This document shows positions 51,350 through 58,645 of a DNA stretch of 64,000 bases, one piece after another. Numbering within the stretch: position 1 is the stretch's first letter; each line of letters begins with the position of its first letter. The notes below the pieces were generated by a model. It saw only the letters and a program-made list of their open reading frames with translations. It made no database searches and was not told the DNA's origin. A program made the position numbers and the translations under genes. The stretch lies in assembly GCF_056712565.1 (NCBI RefSeq), contig NZ_CM160072.1; one strand, 5' to 3'.

Positions 51350-51426
<77 letters not shown>

Positions 51427-51459
51427 ATTAAAATTTGATGAAGTAAAGCAGTACGGTGA

Positions 51460-51536
<77 letters not shown>

Positions 51537-51569
51537 ATCAAAATTTGATGAAATAAAGCAGTACGGTGA

Positions 51570-51646
<77 letters not shown>

Positions 51647-51700: not shown

Positions 51701-52281
51701 TTTTTACGCTTCCTTACCCGTTTCAGTGAAGCCTGAGACAATGAGTAAACCGTTAATATCCCTCCATCAAAGCCATCCATCTTATTTATATATTAAACAT
51801 ATACCCCATTAATGAATTTCATTTATATATTCTATAAATCAATTTATTTTGGTTATGTTAACATTTCAATATCACAACAGGGCGCTACGCTTATATAATC
51901 ATTGTACAAAAAGCACACAACTTTTTAATTAGTAGAAAAATTAATAATTTTTTGTGAAAGCCCGGACAATAAGTTTAATGAATATCTTAATAGACTCTCA
52001 TACTACCCAATTTCTTAAAAGTGCAAATTTGTGAAGCTTATCCTGTTATTATTTTAAGTTTCATGCCAAATTCTCTCACCAGATAATGCCGCCCTCTTCC
52101 GAAAAATAATCAAGAGGCCAAACAATATCTAAAATGATACAACTGTATCTATTCCCCTGAAAAATACATTATTCATTTGTATATTTTCCTCATCATTGCT
52201 TTTTATTTAAATCATCCGATAATCCCCTGAATATAATTATGTCAATAACCATCAGAAAAAGTGGATGATGAGGAAAAGGAT
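51701..52281 (+). promoter_or_regulatory. AT-rich island junction and T6SS promoter region
   Basis: About 580 bp of strongly AT-rich non-coding DNA between the tRNA terminator and tssB; contains a Fur-box-like gataat...attat stretch at about 52218-52250. Confidence 0.4.
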
Positions 52282-52782
52282 ATGGCTGACAGTTTCCAGA
52301 ATGAAGTTCCCACCGCTCGTGTAAATATCAAGCTTGATCTGCATACAGGCAATGCTAAAAAGAAAGTTGAACTCCCCCTCAAGCTTCTTGCCGTAGGCGA
52401 TTACAGTAACGGAAAAGAGCAACGTCCGCTGTCCGAACGGGACAAGGTTGATATCAATAAAAACAACTTCAACAGCGTCATGGCTGAGTTTTCGCCTGCG
52501 GTTAATTTAACAGTAGAAGATACGCTAAACGGAAACGGTAATGAACAAAATATCGCGCTTGAATTTAAAAGCCTGAAGGATTTTGAACCCGAACAGGTAG
52601 CAAAAAATATTCCGCAACTTCGTGTATTACTCGCTATGCGCAATTTACTACGTGACCTGAAATCCAATCTGCTGGATAACGCAACGTTTCGCCGTGAACT
52701 GGAAAATATTCTGAAAGACCCGACGCTCAGTTCAGAACTGCGTGATGAACTGGCGAAAATTGCGCCGCAGGAGAACGTTTAA
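52282..52782 (+). CDS. tssB: T6SS contractile sheath small subunit TssB (VipA)
   Basis: 166 aa from MADSFQNEVPTARVNIKLDLHTG... with gaggaaaagga Shine-Dalgarno; ORF-track start at 52261 is an alternative. Confidence 0.85.
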   Translation: MADSFQNEVPTARVNIKLDLHTGNAKKKVELPLKLLAVGDYSNGKEQRPLSERDKVDINKNNFNSVMAEFSPAVNLTVEDTLNGNGNEQNIALEFKSLKDFEPEQVAKNIPQLRVLLAMRNLLRDLKSNLLDNATFRRELENILKDPTLSSELRDELAKIAPQENV

Positions 52783-52834
52783 CCCGAACACGTATTCAGG
52801 TTAAACCGGAGAAGAAAGGATCACTGAAAAGGAA

Positions 52835-54379
52835 ATGCTGATGTCTGTACAACAAGAACATTCCACCTCTGAAACTGCAACACTCACCACCACTGAGTCC
52901 GGCGGCGTTTATCAGTCCCTGTTCGATAAAATTAATTTAACCCCGGTCTCTTCCATTCAGGAAATAGATTTATGGCAAAACAGCGAAACGCTGGCTGATG
53001 CCTCACCCGATGAGCGCGTGACAGCAGCGATTCACGTTCTGCTTTCCTGTCTGGCGAAATCAGGCGAGGACGTGGTTAAGCTCGACAAGAGCCTGCTGGA
53101 TTTTCATATCGACGATCTGGATCAGAAAATCAGTAAACAGCTTGATGCGGTCATGCACCACCCTGAATTCCAGAAAGTCGAGTCGCTGTGGCGTGGTACA
53201 TGGTTCGTCGTACAGCGCACTGATTTTCGCAAAAATGTCAGAATTGAATTGCTGGATATCAGCAAAGAGCATCTGCGTCAGGATTTCGACGACTCCCCGG
53301 AAATCATTCAGAGCGGTTTATATCGTCATACATACATTCAGGAGTACGATACGCCGGGTGGCGAACCTGTTGCCTCATTAATTTCCAGCTATGAATTTGA
53401 TAACAGCCCGCAGGATATTGCCCTGCTGCGCAATATTTCCAGAGTGTCTGCCGCTTCCCATATGCCTTTTATCGGTTCCGTCGGACCGAAATTCTTCCTT
53501 AAAAATTCGATGGAAGAAGTCGCCGCGATTAAAGATATCGGCAACTACTTTGACCGCGCAGAATATATTAAATGGAAGTCGTTCCGCGATACGGATGACA
53601 GCCGCTATGTGGGATTAGTGATGCCGCGAGTGCTGGGCCGTCTGCCCTATGGGCCGGACACGGTGCCGGTACGCAGCTTTAACTATGTGGAAGAAGTCAA
53701 AGGCCCGGATCACGAAAAGTACCTGTGGACAAACGCCTCGTTCGCCTTTGCCGCCAATATGGTGAAGAGCTTTGTGAATAATGGCTGGTGTGTGCAGATC
53801 CGTGGTCCACAGGCAGGTGGCGCAGTAGCCGATCTGCCCATCCATCTTTACGATCTCGGCACCGGCAATCAGGTCAAAATTCCGTCCGAAGTGATGATCC
53901 CGGAAACCCGCGAATTTGAATTTGCCAACCTTGGCTTTATTCCGCTCTCTTATTATAAGAATCGCGATTACGCCTGCTTCTTCTCGGCAAACTCCGCCCA
54001 GAAACCGGCGTTGTATGATACCGCTGACGCCACCGCCAACAGCCGTATTAACGCCCGTCTGCCTTACATCTTCCTGCTGTCCCGCATTGCGCATTACCTG
54101 AAAATCATTCAGCGCGAGAATATCGGTACCACCAAAGACCGCCGCGTACTGGAACTGGAACTGAACACCTGGATCCGCACACTGGTGACGGAGATGACCG
54201 ATCCGGGTGATGAACTGCAGGCGTCTCACCCGCTGCGCGACGGCAAGGTTATCGTGGAAGATATTGAGGACAATCCGGGCTTCTTCCGCGTCAGACTCTT
54301 TGCCGTGCCGCATTTCCAGATTGAAGGGATGGATATCAACCTTTCTCTGGTTTCCCAGATGCCGAAAGCGAAAGCCTGA
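52835..54379 (+). CDS. tssC: T6SS contractile sheath large subunit TssC (VipB)
   Basis: About 512 aa; position and size fit TssC; start may be the second ATG at 52841. Confidence 0.85.
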   Translation: MLMSVQQEHSTSETATLTTTESGGVYQSLFDKINLTPVSSIQEIDLWQNSETLADASPDERVTAAIHVLLSCLAKSGEDVVKLDKSLLDFHIDDLDQKISKQLDAVMHHPEFQKVESLWRGTWFVVQRTDFRKNVRIELLDISKEHLRQDFDDSPEIIQSGLYRHTYIQEYDTPGGEPVASLISSYEFDNSPQDIALLRNISRVSAASHMPFIGSVGPKFFLKNSMEEVAAIKDIGNYFDRAEYIKWKSFRDTDDSRYVGLVMPRVLGRLPYGPDTVPVRSFNYVEEVKGPDHEKYLWTNASFAFAANMVKSFVNNGWCVQIRGPQAGGAVADLPIHLYDLGTGNQVKIPSEVMIPETREFEFANLGFIPLSYYKNRDYACFFSANSAQKPALYDTADATANSRINARLPYIFLLSRIAHYLKIIQRENIGTTKDRRVLELELNTWIRTLVTEMTDPGDELQASHPLRDGKVIVEDIEDNPGFFRVRLFAVPHFQIEGMDINLSLVSQMPKAKA

Positions 54380-54396
54380 CCGGGCCGTGGTGTGAT

Positions 54397-55734
54397 ATGA
54401 AAATTCATCGACCACTGTGGGCTGAGGGGACATTCCTGTCCTCTCAGCAGTTTCAGCAGCAGGCCCGCTGGGAAGCGTTCAGCAATGACTGTATTGCGCA
54501 GCTTTGTATTCGCCATCCGTGGGGGATCGCAAACGTGCTCTTTGACCGGGATGCCCTGACGCCCGGAAAGCTGAAAACGCAGGCAGTACGCCTGCGTTTT
54601 GCTGATGGCACGCTGATCGATTCAGACGTGAGTGACGTTCTGCCGCTCGCCTGCGATCTGCGCGCGCTGAAGAACGACAGCGCGATTGTTTTGCTGGCGC
54701 TGCCGCTTGCACATGGTAACGGCGGTAATCTCGGTCAGGGTGAGCAGACTGAAAGACCGCTGCGCTATCGTCAGGAATGGCAAAAGGTGCAGGATATCTA
54801 CGGCAGTGACAGTGAAGATATGGCCGTTGAGCGTCATGCGCTGTCCCTGCGCTTTGCTCATGATAACAATCAGGATTACATCACCTGCCCACTGGCGCGT
54901 CTGGTGCGGGATGTTCAGGGCAACTGGACACAGGATGAGAGCTATATTCCGCCGTTACTGGCGTTTAACGCCCATGACGGGCTGGTACAGCGTCTGGACA
55001 CATTGCTGTTGCAGCTACGGGCGAAGTGCCAGCGTCTGATGGCGATGCGCCGGGAAAGCAACCAGCGTATGGCGGACTTTGCCGTCGCCGATGTCTCCCT
55101 GTTCTGGCTGCTTAACGCGCTGAATTCCGCCGAGCCGGTGCTGAGCGATTTCCTGCGCTACCCGGCTGTCCACCCCGAACTGGTCTGGCGGGAGCTGGCG
55201 AGGCTTGCCGGTGCGCTGCTGACGTTTTCCCTTGAGCATAACGTCAGCGCCGTTCCGCCCTATGTCCACGAATCGCCGTCCACCGTCTTTCCGCCCCTGT
55301 TCTCCCTGCTCAGCGAGCTGCTGGAAGCCAGCCTGCCGTCGCGGGTGATCGCGCTGGATCTGGCGTCCCTGCCGGGCAACCGCTGGAAAGCCGACCTGCA
55401 CGATCCGCGACTGCGGGAAGAGGCCGATTTTTATCTGTCCGTTCGTTCCTCACTGCCTGCGCATCAGGTACTGCATCAGCTACCGCTGGTCTGCAAAATC
55501 GGTGCGCCCGATGATGTCACGCTGCTTATCAACGTGGCGCTGAACGGTGTTCAACTGGTGCCGCTTACCTCGGTTCCGGCGGCGCTGCCGCTGCGGCTGG
55601 AGAACCAGTATTTTGCGCTGGATATGCACAGTGACGCGGCTAAATCGATGCTGGAGTCCGGGAGCTGCATGATTTATGCGCCGGGAACCATGGGCGACCT
55701 GAAACCTGAACTGTTTGCGGTGCTGCGCACATGA
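54397..55734 (+). CDS. tssK: T6SS baseplate subunit TssK
   Basis: 445 aa, MKIHRPLWAEGTFLSSQQFQQQ... typical TssK N-terminus. Confidence 0.85.
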   Translation: MKIHRPLWAEGTFLSSQQFQQQARWEAFSNDCIAQLCIRHPWGIANVLFDRDALTPGKLKTQAVRLRFADGTLIDSDVSDVLPLACDLRALKNDSAIVLLALPLAHGNGGNLGQGEQTERPLRYRQEWQKVQDIYGSDSEDMAVERHALSLRFAHDNNQDYITCPLARLVRDVQGNWTQDESYIPPLLAFNAHDGLVQRLDTLLLQLRAKCQRLMAMRRESNQRMADFAVADVSLFWLLNALNSAEPVLSDFLRYPAVHPELVWRELARLAGALLTFSLEHNVSAVPPYVHESPSTVFPPLFSLLSELLEASLPSRVIALDLASLPGNRWKADLHDPRLREEADFYLSVRSSLPAHQVLHQLPLVCKIGAPDDVTLLINVALNGVQLVPLTSVPAALPLRLENQYFALDMHSDAAKSMLESGSCMIYAPGTMGDLKPELFAVLRT

Positions 55735-56396
55735 AAAAAGATATGGATATCAATATCGATGCGCTGCTGCGCGACACGTTTCTGACGGTGGTGGAACTGC
55801 GTCAGGGAACCACCGTGCGTCACGGTATCGAGCTGTATCGCCACTGTCAGCGGCAGGTGGAACTGGTCCGCGAACGTCTGAAAGATGCCGGATTCAGTCG
55901 GGAGAACGTGGAGCACATAACTTACGCGCAGTGCGCCCTGCTGGACGAAACGGTGCTCAGCCGTAGTGGCATGGACGACGGTCAGGCCATCTGGATGAAA
56001 AACCCACTCCAGTCGCATTTCTTCAACACCCTGCAGGCCGGTGAGCTGCTGTACGAGCGGATGAAGCAGGTGCTACAGGAACCCGCCCCCGCGCAGGCCG
56101 TGCTGACCTGCTTTCACCGTGTCCTGCTGCTGGGATTTCGCGGGCGTTATCAGGATCCGGCAGCCCCGGAGCGCGACCAGCTTATTTCGACGCTCAACGG
56201 GCAGGTCGCGCCATTTGGTGTGCTGCCGGAAACGGCGGTACTGAACGTGCCGTTATCCACCCGTCAGCACCCTTTGCTGCATTCGCCATTTTTCTGGCTG
56301 GTAACACTGGCGCTGCTACTGGCGGGCGTCTGGTGGGGGCTACACCACTGGCTGAATGTACTGGTGGATGAACTGCTGCCGCAAAGCCTGCGTTAA
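55731..56396 (+). CDS. tssL: T6SS membrane-complex protein TssL (DotU/IcmH family)
   Basis: 221 aa; cytoplasmic DotU-like domain then a single C-terminal TM (WLVTLALLLAGVWWGL); start overlaps tssK stop. Confidence 0.85.
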   Translation: MKKDMDINIDALLRDTFLTVVELRQGTTVRHGIELYRHCQRQVELVRERLKDAGFSRENVEHITYAQCALLDETVLSRSGMDDGQAIWMKNPLQSHFFNTLQAGELLYERMKQVLQEPAPAQAVLTCFHRVLLLGFRGRYQDPAAPERDQLISTLNGQVAPFGVLPETAVLNVPLSTRQHPLLHSPFFWLVTLALLLAGVWWGLHHWLNVLVDELLPQSLR

Positions 56397-56408
56397 AGGG
56401 AGTCGTGA

Positions 56409-58061
56409 GTGAGGAACACGCTGAAACAGGCCATCGTGCTGTGGGGAATGGTGTTACTGCTGGTGCTGTGGTCAGTGTTTATCAGTCCGTCTGGCGTGCT
56501 GAGATGGGCCGGTGCGGCGGCTATCGTTCTGGCGGTTGCTGCGTTGTTGATTTATCGGCGCAGGCAGGCGTGGACGGAGATGACCGGCGATGCCGGGTTG
56601 TCATCGCTGCCGCCGGAAACCTACCGACAGCCGGTAGTGCTGGTCTGTGGCGGTCTGTCGGCGCACCTGTTCACTGACAGCCCGGTCCGCCAGGTTTCAG
56701 AAGGGCTGTATCTGCATGTTCCTGATGAAGAACAGCTTGTGGCGCAGGTGGAGCGATTGCTGACCCTTCGCCCGGCGTGGGCATCGCAGCTTGCCGTGGC
56801 GTATACCATCATGCCCGGCATACACCGGGATGTGGCGGTTCTGGCCGGACGGCTGCGACGGTTCGCCCACAGTATGGCGACGGTGCGTCGTCGGGCAGGC
56901 GTAAACGTCCCCTGGCTTCTCTGGAGCGGGCTGTCCGGCTCGCCGTTGCCGGAAAGAGCGAGTTCACCGTGGTTTATCTGTACCGGCGGCGAAGTTCAGG
57001 TAGCAACATCCACAGAGAACGCGATGCCCGCGCAGTGGATTGCACAATCCGGCGTACAGGAACGCAGTCAGCGACTCTCTTATCTGCTGAAAGCCGAAAG
57101 CCTGATGCAGTGGCTGGATCTTAATGTGCTGGCGGAACTGAACGGCCCGGAGGCGAAATGTCCACCACTGGCGATGGCCGTGGGGCTGGTCCCCTCGTTG
57201 CCTGCGGTGGATAACAACCTGTGGCAGTTGTGGATCACCGCCAGAACCGGCCTGACGCCGGATATCGCGGACACCGGCACAGACGATGCGCTGCCATTCC
57301 CGGATGCCCTGTTACGGCGGTTGCCGCGTCAGTCGGGCTTTACCCCGCTGCGACGGGCCTGCGTGACCATGCTGGGCGTCACCACCGTGGCGGGTATCGC
57401 CGCGCTGTGCCTGTCAGCCACGGCAAATCGCCAGTTATTACGGCAGGTCGGTGACGATCTGCACCGGTTTTATGCCGTCCCGGTGGAGGAATTTATCACC
57501 AAAGCCCGTCACCTGTCGGTGCTGAAAGACGATGCGACCATGCTCGATGGGTATTACCGGGAAGGAGAACCACTGCGCCTCGGTCTGGGGTTATACCCCG
57601 GCGAACGCATCCGCCAGCCGGTATTACGCGCCATTCGCGACTGGCGTCCGCCTGAACAAAAAATGGAGGTGACGGCTTCGCTTCAGGTTCAGACCGTGCG
57701 TCTTGACAGTATGTCGCTGTTTGACGTCGGACAGGCCCGCCTGAAAGACGGCTCGACAAAAGTGCTGGTGGACGCACTGGTGAACATCCGGGCAAAACCG
57801 GGCTGGCTGATCCTCGTGGCCGGATATACCGATGCCACCGGCGATGAAAAAAGCAATCAGCAGTTATCGCTGCGGCGTGCCGAAGCGGTGCGCAACTGGA
57901 TGCTGCAGACCAGCGACATCCCGGCCACCTGTTTTGCCGTACAGGGACTGGGCGAGAGCCAGCCTGCGGCGACCAACGACACGCCACAGGGCCGGGCAGT
58001 CAACCGGCGTGTCGAAATCAGTCTTGTTCCGCGTTCTGACGCCTGTCAGGACGTGAAATAA
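56409..58061 (+). CDS. tagL: T6SS-associated peptidoglycan-binding membrane protein (TagL/SciZ-like)
   Basis: 550 aa; GTG start; N-terminal TM segments and a C-terminal OmpA/MotB-like domain (LILVAGYTDATGDEKSNQQLSLRRAEAVRNWM...GRAVNRRVEISLV). Confidence 0.8.
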   Translation: MRNTLKQAIVLWGMVLLLVLWSVFISPSGVLRWAGAAAIVLAVAALLIYRRRQAWTEMTGDAGLSSLPPETYRQPVVLVCGGLSAHLFTDSPVRQVSEGLYLHVPDEEQLVAQVERLLTLRPAWASQLAVAYTIMPGIHRDVAVLAGRLRRFAHSMATVRRRAGVNVPWLLWSGLSGSPLPERASSPWFICTGGEVQVATSTENAMPAQWIAQSGVQERSQRLSYLLKAESLMQWLDLNVLAELNGPEAKCPPLAMAVGLVPSLPAVDNNLWQLWITARTGLTPDIADTGTDDALPFPDALLRRLPRQSGFTPLRRACVTMLGVTTVAGIAALCLSATANRQLLRQVGDDLHRFYAVPVEEFITKARHLSVLKDDATMLDGYYREGEPLRLGLGLYPGERIRQPVLRAIRDWRPPEQKMEVTASLQVQTVRLDSMSLFDVGQARLKDGSTKVLVDALVNIRAKPGWLILVAGYTDATGDEKSNQQLSLRRAEAVRNWMLQTSDIPATCFAVQGLGESQPAATNDTPQGRAVNRRVEISLVPRSDACQDVK

Positions 58062-58118
58062 AACATACCGCCGGAAGAAGGCGGTGCTTCAATCACACTA
58101 ACAAGGAGAGTAATTCTC

Positions 58119-58610
58119 ATGGCTATTCCTGCTTATCTCTGGCTGAAAGATGACGGCGGCGCGGATATCAAAGGTTCCGTGGACGTTCAGGGGCGCGAAG
58201 GTAGCATCGAAGTGGTGGCGCTGGATCACGATGTGTACATCCCGACCGACAATAACACCGGCAAACTGACCGGTACCCGTACTCACAAGCCTTTTACGTT
58301 TACCAAAGAAATCGATGCCTCCAGCCCGTATCTCTACAAAGCTGTGACCACCGGACAGCCCCTGAAAACGGCGGAGTTTAAATTCTACCGCATCAACGAT
58401 GCCGGTCAGGAAGTGGAGTATTTCAATACCACGCTGGATAACGTCAAGCTGGTCAGAGTAGCTCCGCTGATGCACGACATCAAAGATCCGGGTAAAGAGA
58501 AGCATAACCACCTGGAACGCATTGAGTTCCGCTACGAGAAAATCACCTGGACTTACAAAGACGGCAACATCATTCATTCCGACTCGTGGAATGAGCGTCC
58601 TTCCGCCTGA
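58119..58610 (+). CDS. hcp: T6SS tube protein Hcp
   Basis: 163 aa, MAIPAYLWLKDDGGADIKGSVDVQGREGSIEV...; strong Shine-Dalgarno (aaggaga). Confidence 0.92.
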   Translation: MAIPAYLWLKDDGGADIKGSVDVQGREGSIEVVALDHDVYIPTDNNTGKLTGTRTHKPFTFTKEIDASSPYLYKAVTTGQPLKTAEFKFYRINDAGQEVEYFNTTLDNVKLVRVAPLMHDIKDPGKEKHNHLERIEFRYEKITWTYKDGNIIHSDSWNERPSA

Positions 58611-58617
58611 TAACTGC

Positions 58618-58645
58618 GGCAGACAGGAAACTGTCTGCCTTTTTG
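58618..58645 (+). terminator. rho-independent terminator downstream of hcp
   Basis: ggcagacag-gaaa-ctgtctgcc stem-loop followed by ttttt. Confidence 0.75.

Follow-up and report, generated by a model that had tools for sequence, protein, structure and literature searches.

The gene at 56409-58061 of the analysed DNA (the window, a single stretch of 64,000 nt) very probably encodes TagL (SciZ), an inner-membrane accessory subunit of a type VI secretion system (T6SS) of the T6SS-1 type. Homology, domain content, binding residues, predicted topology and synteny were all computed here. By analogy with the EAEC orthologue, which is 36% identical overall, the protein would bind peptidoglycan, contact TssL and be required for secretion; for EAEC TagL, peptidoglycan binding is documented both in vitro and in vivo, as are its contact with TssL and its necessity for T6SS function (PMC8253398, PMC3426401).

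The gene and its T6SS-1 cluster

The gene and the surrounding features of the island are as follows.

51350-51646, + strand: three tandem tRNA-Met (CAU) genes metZWV, the island insertion site beside mltA (ARAGORN; RefSeq)
52261-55734, + strand: tssB, tssC and tssK, the same-strand gene run upstream (Pfam VipA, VipB/VipB_2 and VasE, E=6e-51 to 4e-125)
55731-56396, + strand: tssL, short form, 221 aa, DotU domain plus C-terminal transmembrane (TM) anchor (NCBIfam NF038239, 285 bits against a cutoff of 180; Pfam DotU at residues 9-207)
56396-56402, + strand: Shine-Dalgarno-like AAGGGAG, read directly, ending 6 nt 5' of the GTG and overlapping the tssL stop codon
56409-58061, + strand: tagL orthologue, 550 aa (ORF list, Pfam, RefSeq and EAEC alignment), annotated merely as 'OmpA family protein' (WP_001246521.1)
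58119-58610, + strand: hcp (Pfam T6SS_HCP, E=6e-36; 82% identical to Sci-1 Hcp)
58618-58639, + strand: terminator-like hairpin directly after hcp, with a 9-bp stem, 6 G-C pairs and then a T-run (consensus scan)

The first-pass annotation had placed a 550-aa protein between tssL and hcp, and this was borne out by the ORF list, where the intact frame opens with GTG on the + strand, and by RefSeq, whose CDS WP_001246521.1 of E. coli ATCC 11775 is identical to it. The ATCC 11775 sequence is 100% identical to the window over 55700-58150. The tssL stop codon is followed by tagL after 12 nt, and the end of tagL by hcp after 57 nt. A wrong start codon for tagL was considered and rejected, since the Shine-Dalgarno sequence is good, RefSeq uses the same start and EAEC TagL aligns to within two N-terminal residues. 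The terminator-like hairpin is a pattern match only, and sites of this kind are no more numerous in the region than expected from shuffling.

The tssL-tagL segment was kept in 1304 of 5426 complete E. coli genomes, indicating that the arrangement is not due to chance. TagL as a kind of protein and its pairing with a short TssL are already known, having been characterised in EAEC since 2010, and the gene in the window is an orthologue within a common metV-island T6SS-1 cluster present in about a quarter of complete E. coli genomes. The practical value of the assignment is one of annotation: the RefSeq name goes no further than 'OmpA family protein', and in some sources the gene is wrongly labelled as YiaD or as an outer-membrane lipoprotein.

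The order of genes in the cluster, tssB-tssC-tssK-tssL-tagL-hcp-tssH-vgrG ... PAAR-hyp-tssM-tssA ... tssF, matches that of EAEC Sci-1; for 12 cluster genes in that shared order, BLASTP matched the Sci-1 counterpart significantly, at 20-82% identity. The products of tssB, tssC and tssK are 66%, 79% and 57% identical to theirs, while no significant BLASTP match was found in EAEC Sci-1 for the lipase-like effector gene after vgrG. The least conserved products relative to Sci-1 are TagL (36%), TssL (39%) and TssM (45%), as against 82% for Hcp and 79% for TssC, a pattern that fits interacting membrane partners diverging together.

Sci-1 has been classed in the T6SS-1 subfamily (PMC5048182). The earlier assignment of the island to the Sci-1 architectural subtype thus holds for gene order and content, with the qualification that this is a diverged sub-lineage, the metV-island cluster familiar from UPEC CFT073, and not the Sci-1 locus itself, which lies in a pheU island. 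The metZWV site beside mltA is shared with the PAI-metV T6SS of UPEC CFT073 and with the related Salmonella SPI-20/SPI-21, and the overall gene architecture is also that of the CFT073 system, compared here by its published description (PMC2907695). A Salmonella enterica TagL homologue at 73% identity was present among the protein matches (P0116).

The TssL encoded next to tagL had been said to lack a peptidoglycan-binding domain of its own, and this is correct: it scores as 'TssL short form' with NF038239, and no OmpA domain was found in it. In the long-form TssL proteins (Agrobacterium ImpK, P. aeruginosa TssL1, Salmonella SPI-6) an OmpA-type domain does the anchoring of the membrane complex to peptidoglycan that is expected of TagL, but there it is fused to the TssL C-terminus, whereas here it belongs to a separate protein with three TM segments that accompanies a short TssL.

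Homology to EAEC TagL, topology and the OmpA-type domain

Within the 550-aa product the following segments were recognised.

56430-56552, + strand: hairpin of TM1 (aa 8-26) and TM2 (aa 30-48) with a 3-residue periplasmic turn (hydropathy 2.5 and 2.3; K/R-rich cytoplasmic flanks; AlphaFold helices 3-24 and 29-58)
56592-57320, + strand: cytoplasmic alpha/beta domain, aa ~62-304, with a Ras-like GTPase fold in the model, no Walker A and no Pfam match; predicted pseudo-GTPase
57357-57413, + strand: TM3, aa 317-335 (hydropathy 2.09; five K/R in the 15 residues before it; AlphaFold helix 313-356)
57420-57668, + strand: periplasmic helical linker, aa 338-420, homologous to the TssM segment after TM3 (hhalign)
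57690-58031, + strand: OmpA/Pal/MotB-type peptidoglycan-binding domain, aa 428-541 (Pfam OmpA; 68% identical to the EAEC TagL domain solved as 7BBA)
57855-57881, + strand: peptidoglycan-binding motif NQQLSLRRA (N483, L486, S487, R490, A491), mapped from EAEC TagL, with D475 just upstream

An alignment to EAEC TagL had been suggested as a check, and it revealed full-length homology. BLASTP against TagL/SciZ of EAEC 042 (EC042_4528, L002:26945-28675) aligned residues 14-547 with 12-558 at 36% identity (E=4e-90). Identity by region was 68% in the peptidoglycan-binding domain and 21-31% outside it. Both proteins sit between a short tssL and hcp, measure about 550-576 aa, carry three hydrophobic segments at matching positions and keep the N-x-x-L-S-x-x-R-A motif together with the DAP-binding Asp in the OmpA-type domain. 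Relative to its EAEC counterpart, the protein studied here is 26 residues shorter, with no acidic tail at the C-terminus and with small deletions in its cytoplasmic domain.

The C-terminal OmpA-like domain expected from the first reading was confirmed by Pfam OmpA (PF00691), which matched residues 437-533 with 64.4 bits against a cutoff of 27.2 (E=1.3e-17). The best PDB sequence matches of the protein were 7rjj, 5m38 and 7bba (E=1.5e-50 to 3e-44). The entry 7bba, at E=3e-44, is the EAEC TagL peptidoglycan-binding domain, and the two entries counted as TagL peptidoglycan-binding domain, 5m38 and 7bba, match at E=3e-44 to 7e-47. The 'TssL long form' model TIGR03350 also aligned with residues 416-538, with E=2.9e-22 but a score under its cutoff. 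In the alignment, N483, L486, S487, R490, A491 and D475 correspond to EAEC N494, L497, S498, R501, A502 and D486. In EAEC TagL the first five are needed for cell-wall binding, and D486 contacts DAP (PMC8253398). All six implicated residues are invariant in 63 homologues that are 24-70% identical to the protein in the window. The domain would bind peptidoglycan diaminopimelate through D475, N483, L486 and R490, and a complex anchored in this way would remain in position and resist sheath contraction.

Three Kyte-Doolittle peaks (residues 8-26, 30-48 and 317-335) reached 2.1-2.5; all other peaks in the protein stayed at 1.4 or below. The AlphaFold model, with a pLDDT of 90.9, places helices at 3-24, 29-58 and 313-356. 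The earlier description as a polytopic protein with a periplasmic C-terminus is consistent with these three TM segments, whose flanking charges, by the positive-inside rule, predict an N-in, C-out orientation. The predicted layout is thus a cytoplasmic N-terminus, the TM1-TM2 hairpin, a cytoplasmic domain of ~270 aa, TM3 and a periplasmic portion formed by the last ~215 residues. This prediction agrees with the experimentally determined topology of EAEC TagL as quoted in PMC8253398.

A generic envelope protein of the OmpA/MotB type (for instance a stator, or a housekeeping cell-wall tether) that is located in a T6SS island without working with it would agree with the RefSeq name and with the NCBIfam matches to the YiaD, PA1041, YfiB and MotB models. 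These matches are all below their cutoffs and cover only the C-terminal ~120 residues, whereas the similarity to EAEC TagL spans the whole protein, beyond the OmpA domain. Homologues at 40% and at 25% identity also have the gene directly behind a short tssL, the layout of three TM segments plus OmpA is common to all full-length relatives, and the linker shares homology with TssM, itself a T6SS subunit. A generic protein is exceedingly improbable and was rejected on the full-length TagL homology and the conserved pairing with tssL. The TagL/SciZ arrangement put forward in the first-pass annotation is supported by homology, topology, binding residues and synteny, in what is here a diverged sub-lineage.

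Probable relation of the N-terminal body to TssM

The TagL layout of a TM hairpin, a cytoplasmic GTPase-like domain, TM3 and periplasmic helices resembles the N-terminal part of TssM/IcmF, and Walker A is missing both in TagL and in the TssM proteins of the same subtype. In contrast to TssM, the IcmF-related, helical and C2-like periplasmic domains are gone, and the OmpA domain stands in their place. With hhalign, the linker alone matched the TssM N-terminal profile at 85% probability (E=6e-6; reversed control E=0.27), and linker plus TM3 matched the TssM of the cluster itself at E=7.5e-6 and EAEC TssM at E=4.7e-8. The cytoplasmic domain alone gave E=0.13, 0.074 and 0.044 against TssM in profile-sequence and profile-profile comparisons, with 0.25 for the reversed control, and this was treated as not significant. 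The segment 'VVLVCGD' of TagL aligns with 'LLLVTGE' or 'RILLITG' of TssM, an observation that serves as a lead only.

The Pfam IcmF models PF06761, PF21070 and PF06744 gave no match at E<=1 on the window TagL, and sub-threshold PF06761 matches occurred in only 5 of the 63 TagL family members; the TssM of the cluster carries all three. No PDB entry for the TssM cytoplasmic domain was present among the Foldseek hits from the PDB libraries searched. The diversity of homologues was taken from a 50%-representative search, the first homologue search having given almost only E. coli sequences. No TagP-like intermediates were found among the longer OmpA-containing hits of the 50%-representative search. 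Those hits were rejected as TagP-like, being multi-OmpA, beta-barrel or DUF748 proteins, or TagL variants with divergent N-termini.

The shared layout raises the alternative that the protein is of the TagP class and not a TagL, or that TagL and TagP form one family, with a cytoplasmic domain that keeps a TssM-like function (baseplate/TssK contact, nucleotide-dependent regulation). The topology common to TagL and TssM, the homology of the linker after TM3 to TssM and the GTPase-like fold of the cytoplasmic domain are in line with this, as are the motifs LP..., PVVLVCGD, NLWQxW and LPFPD conserved in that domain across the TagL family. TagP is a TssM derivative with a peptidoglycan-binding domain (PMC10433429), set beside TagL here by its description, and 'TssM-like proteins ... 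(TagL/TagP)' are grouped together in one review (PMC5813230). A nucleotide-dependent function is unlikely, because the Walker A motif is absent from all 63 members of the TagL family. The peptidoglycan-binding domain is reportedly the only functionally required domain of EAEC TagL, in work by Santin et al. in 2019, which would also count against a retained cytoplasmic function. Judged by sequence, TagL is the correct name, since the homology to the experimentally defined TagL is direct and full-length, and the alternative as a whole, though it keeps some weight, is considered unlikely.

For the TagL so named, the N-terminal body (hairpin, GTPase-like domain, TM3 and juxtamembrane helices) probably arose as a degenerate copy of the TssM N-terminus, and it would act mainly as a membrane scaffold. 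A fuller proposal seems reasonably probable, in which TagL, rather than being an unrelated membrane protein with an OmpA domain, has in its first ~420 residues a degenerate paralogue of the TssM N-terminal part whose Ras-like G-domain lost its P-loop, the large TssM periplasmic domain having been swapped for a peptidoglycan-binding domain. TagL and TagP would then be two outcomes of one route, and the proposal includes the two hairpin cassettes of E. coli described below. If true, a TssM-derived pseudo-GTPase body would explain both the source of TagL and the reported dispensability of the cytoplasmic domain.

Allelic variation in E. coli

The TM hairpin is dimorphic in E. coli, with two cassettes of ~35% amino-acid identity in otherwise near-identical genes. 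The cassette covers ~56430-56600, where DNA identity between alleles falls to 43-60%, as against 93-100% in the flanks. When both hairpin peptides were compared with all collected homologues, nothing above about 43% identity was found as a donor of the alternative hairpin. The hairpin region is reported to contact the TssL TM helix, again in the 2019 work of Santin et al. In that light, two such cassettes would point either to exchange by recombination or to a TssL contact that makes very loose demands on sequence.

In other E. coli, a frameshift allele (P0110, 34 contigs) destroys the peptidoglycan-binding motif. Together with the degenerate GTPase fold of the cytoplasmic domain, this allele could be taken to mean that the gene is decaying, as the remnant of a cluster that is inactive, and no longer works in ATCC 11775. 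The allele in the window, however, has an unbroken frame of 550 codons that encodes every binding residue, the gene is conserved in the 1304 complete genomes, and the neighbouring core genes are intact, so that decay is very unlikely. Both kinds of natural variant, the two hairpins and the frameshift, would lend themselves to studies of how TagL meets TssL and of whether anchoring to the cell wall is needed.

The tagL gene and its cluster

The gene lies between tssL and hcp, and the three genes are arranged in the window as follows:
55731-56396, tssL, with Pfam DotU at residues 9-207 of 221 and a match to NCBIfam 'TssL, short form' (285 bits, cutoff 180)
56409-58061, + strand, tagL, GTG-started ORF of 550 aa
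58119-58610, hcp, downstream of tagL

The 550-aa ORF reported in the first-pass annotation was recovered in the ORF listing of the window, and a RefSeq CDS with exactly the same bounds is annotated in E. coli ATCC 11775 (WP_001246521.1, 'OmpA family protein'). A Shine-Dalgarno-like AAGGGAG, which shares bases with the tssL stop codon, ends 6 nt 5' of the GTG. Window 55700-58150 was 100% identical to the ATCC 11775 / DSM 30083 chromosome, and the final 28.3 kb of the window was 99.989% identical to that record. Of 5426 complete E. coli genomes, 1304 carried the tssL-tagL segment, so tagL is conserved rather than an ORF that arose by chance. It belongs to an already known protein family, and the E. 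coli island that carries it is well known. In a consensus scan, the intervals separating tssL, tagL and hcp held no + strand terminator-like site. A strong terminator-like hairpin lies directly 3' of hcp (58618-58639), with 6 G-C pairs in its 9-bp stem and a T-run after it. This arrangement, a pattern match only, is compatible with tssL-tagL-hcp co-transcription.

The sole Pfam domain of the protein was OmpA (PF00691, residues 437-533, E=1.3e-17), which at 64.4 bits against a cutoff of 27.2 bits agrees with the C-terminal domain proposed earlier. No OmpA domain was found in the window TssL with Pfam or NCBIfam, so the order previously described, a tssL without a peptidoglycan-binding domain followed by tagL and hcp, holds.

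The surroundings of tagL include tssB, tssC and tssK upstream and tssH/clpV and vgrG downstream, and the T6SS island adjoins mltA and three tandem tRNA-Met genes (metZWV), the same site as PAI-metV, where the CFT073 T6SS is located (PMC2907695). The order tssB-tssC-tssK-tssL-tagL-hcp-tssH-vgrG-(effector/immunity)-PAAR-hyp-tssM-tssA-...-tssF is common to the window cluster and Sci-1 of EAEC 042 (NC_017626, locus L002), a member of the T6SS-1 subfamily of E. coli (PMC5048182; see PMC10562709 for the classification). This shared order supports the Sci-1 architectural subtype assigned in the first-pass annotation. Together with protein identities of 36-82%, it marks the cluster, at the sequence level, as Sci-1-like in architecture but a diverged sub-lineage, in which the inner-membrane proteins TssM, TssL and TagL and the VgrG spike are the most diverged structural components.

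Table. Identity of window cluster proteins to Sci-1
Hcp, 82%
TssC, 79%
TssH, 70%
TssB, 66%
PAAR, 61%
TssK, 57%
TssA, 55%
TssM, 45%
VgrG, 42%
TssL, 39%
TagL, 36%

A gene encoding a 388-aa esterase/lipase-family protein follows vgrG (window 63959 onward, seen at L001:28260-29426). Downstream of it are small genes for hypothetical proteins and an immunity gene of the Tli4 family. BLASTP of this protein against Tle1, which occupies the equivalent Sci-1 position, gave no similarity, indicating that the effector cargo differs from that of Sci-1 despite the shared core architecture.

The short tssL-tagL pair is kept far outside E. coli. A 40%-identical TagL homologue was found in the same order tssB-tssC-tssK-tssL-tagL-hcp-clpV-vgrG, the gene of a 25%-identical homologue directly follows, and overlaps by 4 nt, the gene for a DotU protein of 243 aa, and the arrangement has also been described in Neisseria (PMC10210955). 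On the JGI metagenome contig Ga0153988_1000006 (L003:5273-13659), a chaperone-usher fimbrial operon precedes a short tssL-tagL pair (TagL 25% identical to that of the window), and tssB-tssC-hcp-tssJ-tssK and a long-form TssL (DotU+OmpA) are encoded directly downstream of the pair, so that both anchoring solutions occur in one locus.

Comparison with EAEC TagL

The EAEC 042 TagL (EC042_4528, PMC8253398) is a 576-aa 'OmpA family protein' encoded between tssL and hcp (L002:26945-28675). In BLASTP, residues 14-547 of the window protein aligned with EAEC TagL 12-558 at 36% identity (E=4e-90), and the identity was highest in the peptidoglycan-binding domain.

Table. Identity of window TagL to EAEC TagL by part
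TM1-TM2, 24%
Cytoplasmic domain, 28%
TM3, 21%
Periplasmic linker, 31%
Peptidoglycan-binding domain, 68%

The top solved-structure matches were 7rjj, 5m38 and 7bba (E=1.5e-50 to 3e-44), of which 7BBA is the peptidoglycan-binding domain of EAEC TagL, where D486 is a DAP contact and mutation of any of N494, L497, S498, R501 and A502 abolished cell-wall binding (PMC8253398). These residues correspond to D475, N483, L486, S487, R490 and A491 in the window protein, all invariant in 63/63 members of the TagL family alignment (full-length, 24-70% identical to the window protein). In the same domain, Cys508 (57930-57932) and Cys546 (58044-58046) were both present in 43 of the 63 members and both missing in the other 20, never singly, and this strict co-occurrence suggests a periplasmic disulfide. 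In 7BBA, the crystallised construct (residues 440-552) stops short of the second cysteine.

A Kyte-Doolittle scan (19-residue) gave hydropathy peaks at residues 8-26 (2.50), 30-48 (2.29) and 317-335 (2.09), with no other above 1.4, and EAEC TagL peaked at matching positions. The N-terminal stub carries 2 K/R residues, the 3-residue TM1-TM2 turn none, RRR follows TM2 immediately and 5 K/R fall within the 15 residues preceding TM3, a charge pattern that fits an N-in, C-out orientation; the OmpA domain is therefore predicted to be periplasmic. PMC8253398 quotes the same topology for EAEC TagL, where it was established by experiment. The AlphaFold2 model, with the 63-sequence alignment as input, had a mean pLDDT of 90.9 and helices at 3-24, 29-58 and 313-356.

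Every TagL feature that can be tested in sequence is present in the window protein, and the earlier TagL/SciZ reading is supported by full-length homology, domain content, conserved binding residues, predicted topology and synteny. Compared with an 'evolved' TssL, TagL would work likewise but with the anchoring domain on a separate polypeptide. By analogy with EAEC work (PMC8253398, PMC3426401), TagL would enter the TssJLM membrane complex via TssL, and its periplasmic OmpA-type domain would bind the peptidoglycan DAP residue. Such anchoring may immobilise the complex and resist the force of sheath contraction; peptidoglycan binding, TssL contact and a requirement for secretion would then be expected of window TagL as well.

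Probable relationship of the N-terminal body to TssM

Residues 1-415 of TagL matched no Pfam or NCBIfam model, and three lines of evidence suggest that the N-terminal 420 residues derive from TssM. The TagL family profile matched the TssM of its own cluster (TagL 329-403 with TssM 364-437, 84% probability, E=7.5e-6) and EAEC TssM (311-406 with 355-449, 94.9% probability, E=4.7e-8), and it was collinear with a TssM N-terminal profile built from 22 sequences (5-426 with 10-467, 93% probability, E=3e-7). Since TM segments can give spurious similarity, the soluble linker (TagL 338-420) was compared alone; the 68-column alignment had E=6e-6, and its reversed control E=0.27. The two proteins share a motif here ('R-x-G-x-P-L-R-L-G-L-G-L-Y' in TagL, 'qhGaPWY-r-GL' in TssM). 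For the cytoplasmic domain alone, similarity to TssM sequences was not significant (E=0.04-0.13). Weak Pfam links were also seen: sub-threshold PF06761 (IcmF-related) matches occurred in 5/63 family members (best E=0.0026), and 1/63 matched PF14331.

Modelled alone (TagL 52-314; pLDDT 91.2, pTM 0.89), the cytoplasmic domain (residues ~62-304, window 56592-57320) is predicted to follow the order of strands and helices seen in Ras-like G domains, although its helix 1 is very short: β1 76-81, short helix 84-87, β2-β3 hairpin 93-103, α 107-120, β4 128-134, α 142-163, β5 169-176, an inserted hairpin, α 216-244, β6 255-261 and α 271-280. Among PDB structures, SR-beta was the only Foldseek match at E<1e-3. 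In the model, the family motif 'PVVLVCGD' occupies the β1/P-loop position, and Walker A (GxxxxGK[ST]) was found in 0/63 TagL proteins and 0/22 TssM N-termini of the same subtype. With this fold, the missing Walker A and the linker similarity, TagL (residues 62-420, window 56592-57668) appears to be a degenerate paralogue of the TssM N-terminus, joined to an OmpA domain. It probably descends from a TssM family member, but it lacks the periplasmic domains that define that family in the Pfam sense and is not a member.

The idea has been hinted at, since PMC10433429 describes TagP as derived from TssM and carrying a peptidoglycan-binding domain, and a review refers loosely to 'TssM-like proteins ... 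(TagL/TagP)' (PMC5813230). No explicit demonstration for TagL was found in the literature. Santin et al. in 2019 reportedly found that EAEC TagL needs only its peptidoglycan-binding domain to function, and its N-terminal TM region is said to contact the TssL TM helix; such results would fit a vestigial pseudo-GTPase scaffold. At odds with the TssL contact, PMC10781749 cites the same study for a contact of the TagL N-terminal domain with TssM.

tagL alleles in E. coli

Between the window and strain AR_0104, tssL-tagL-hcp DNA was 93-100% identical outside ~56430-56600 (TagL residues ~8-64), where ungapped identity fell to 43-60% with no indel (alternative hairpin, L006:1026-1206). The window-type cassette was found in 731 complete genomes (90-100% identity) and the alternative in 563, all at least 99% identical and including ST131, with no cross-match between the two even at blastn word size 11 and ~35% peptide identity. 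The two TM1-TM2 hairpin alleles are mutually exclusive, and no better donor turned up among the collected TagL homologues. A reading of TagL as a pseudo-GTPase scaffold descended from TssM, in which the hairpin that contacts TssL is dimorphic, has moderate probability. TssL differs between the alleles at 10 positions, of which 194, 196 and 206 lie in or beside its TM helix.

In a natural frameshift allele of E. coli tagL (P0110), whose 548-aa product gave no OmpA match, the frame breaks after residue 482, immediately 5' of the N483 codon (~57852 onward in the window), and this allele was present in 34 contigs, including a 5.2-Mb chromosome.
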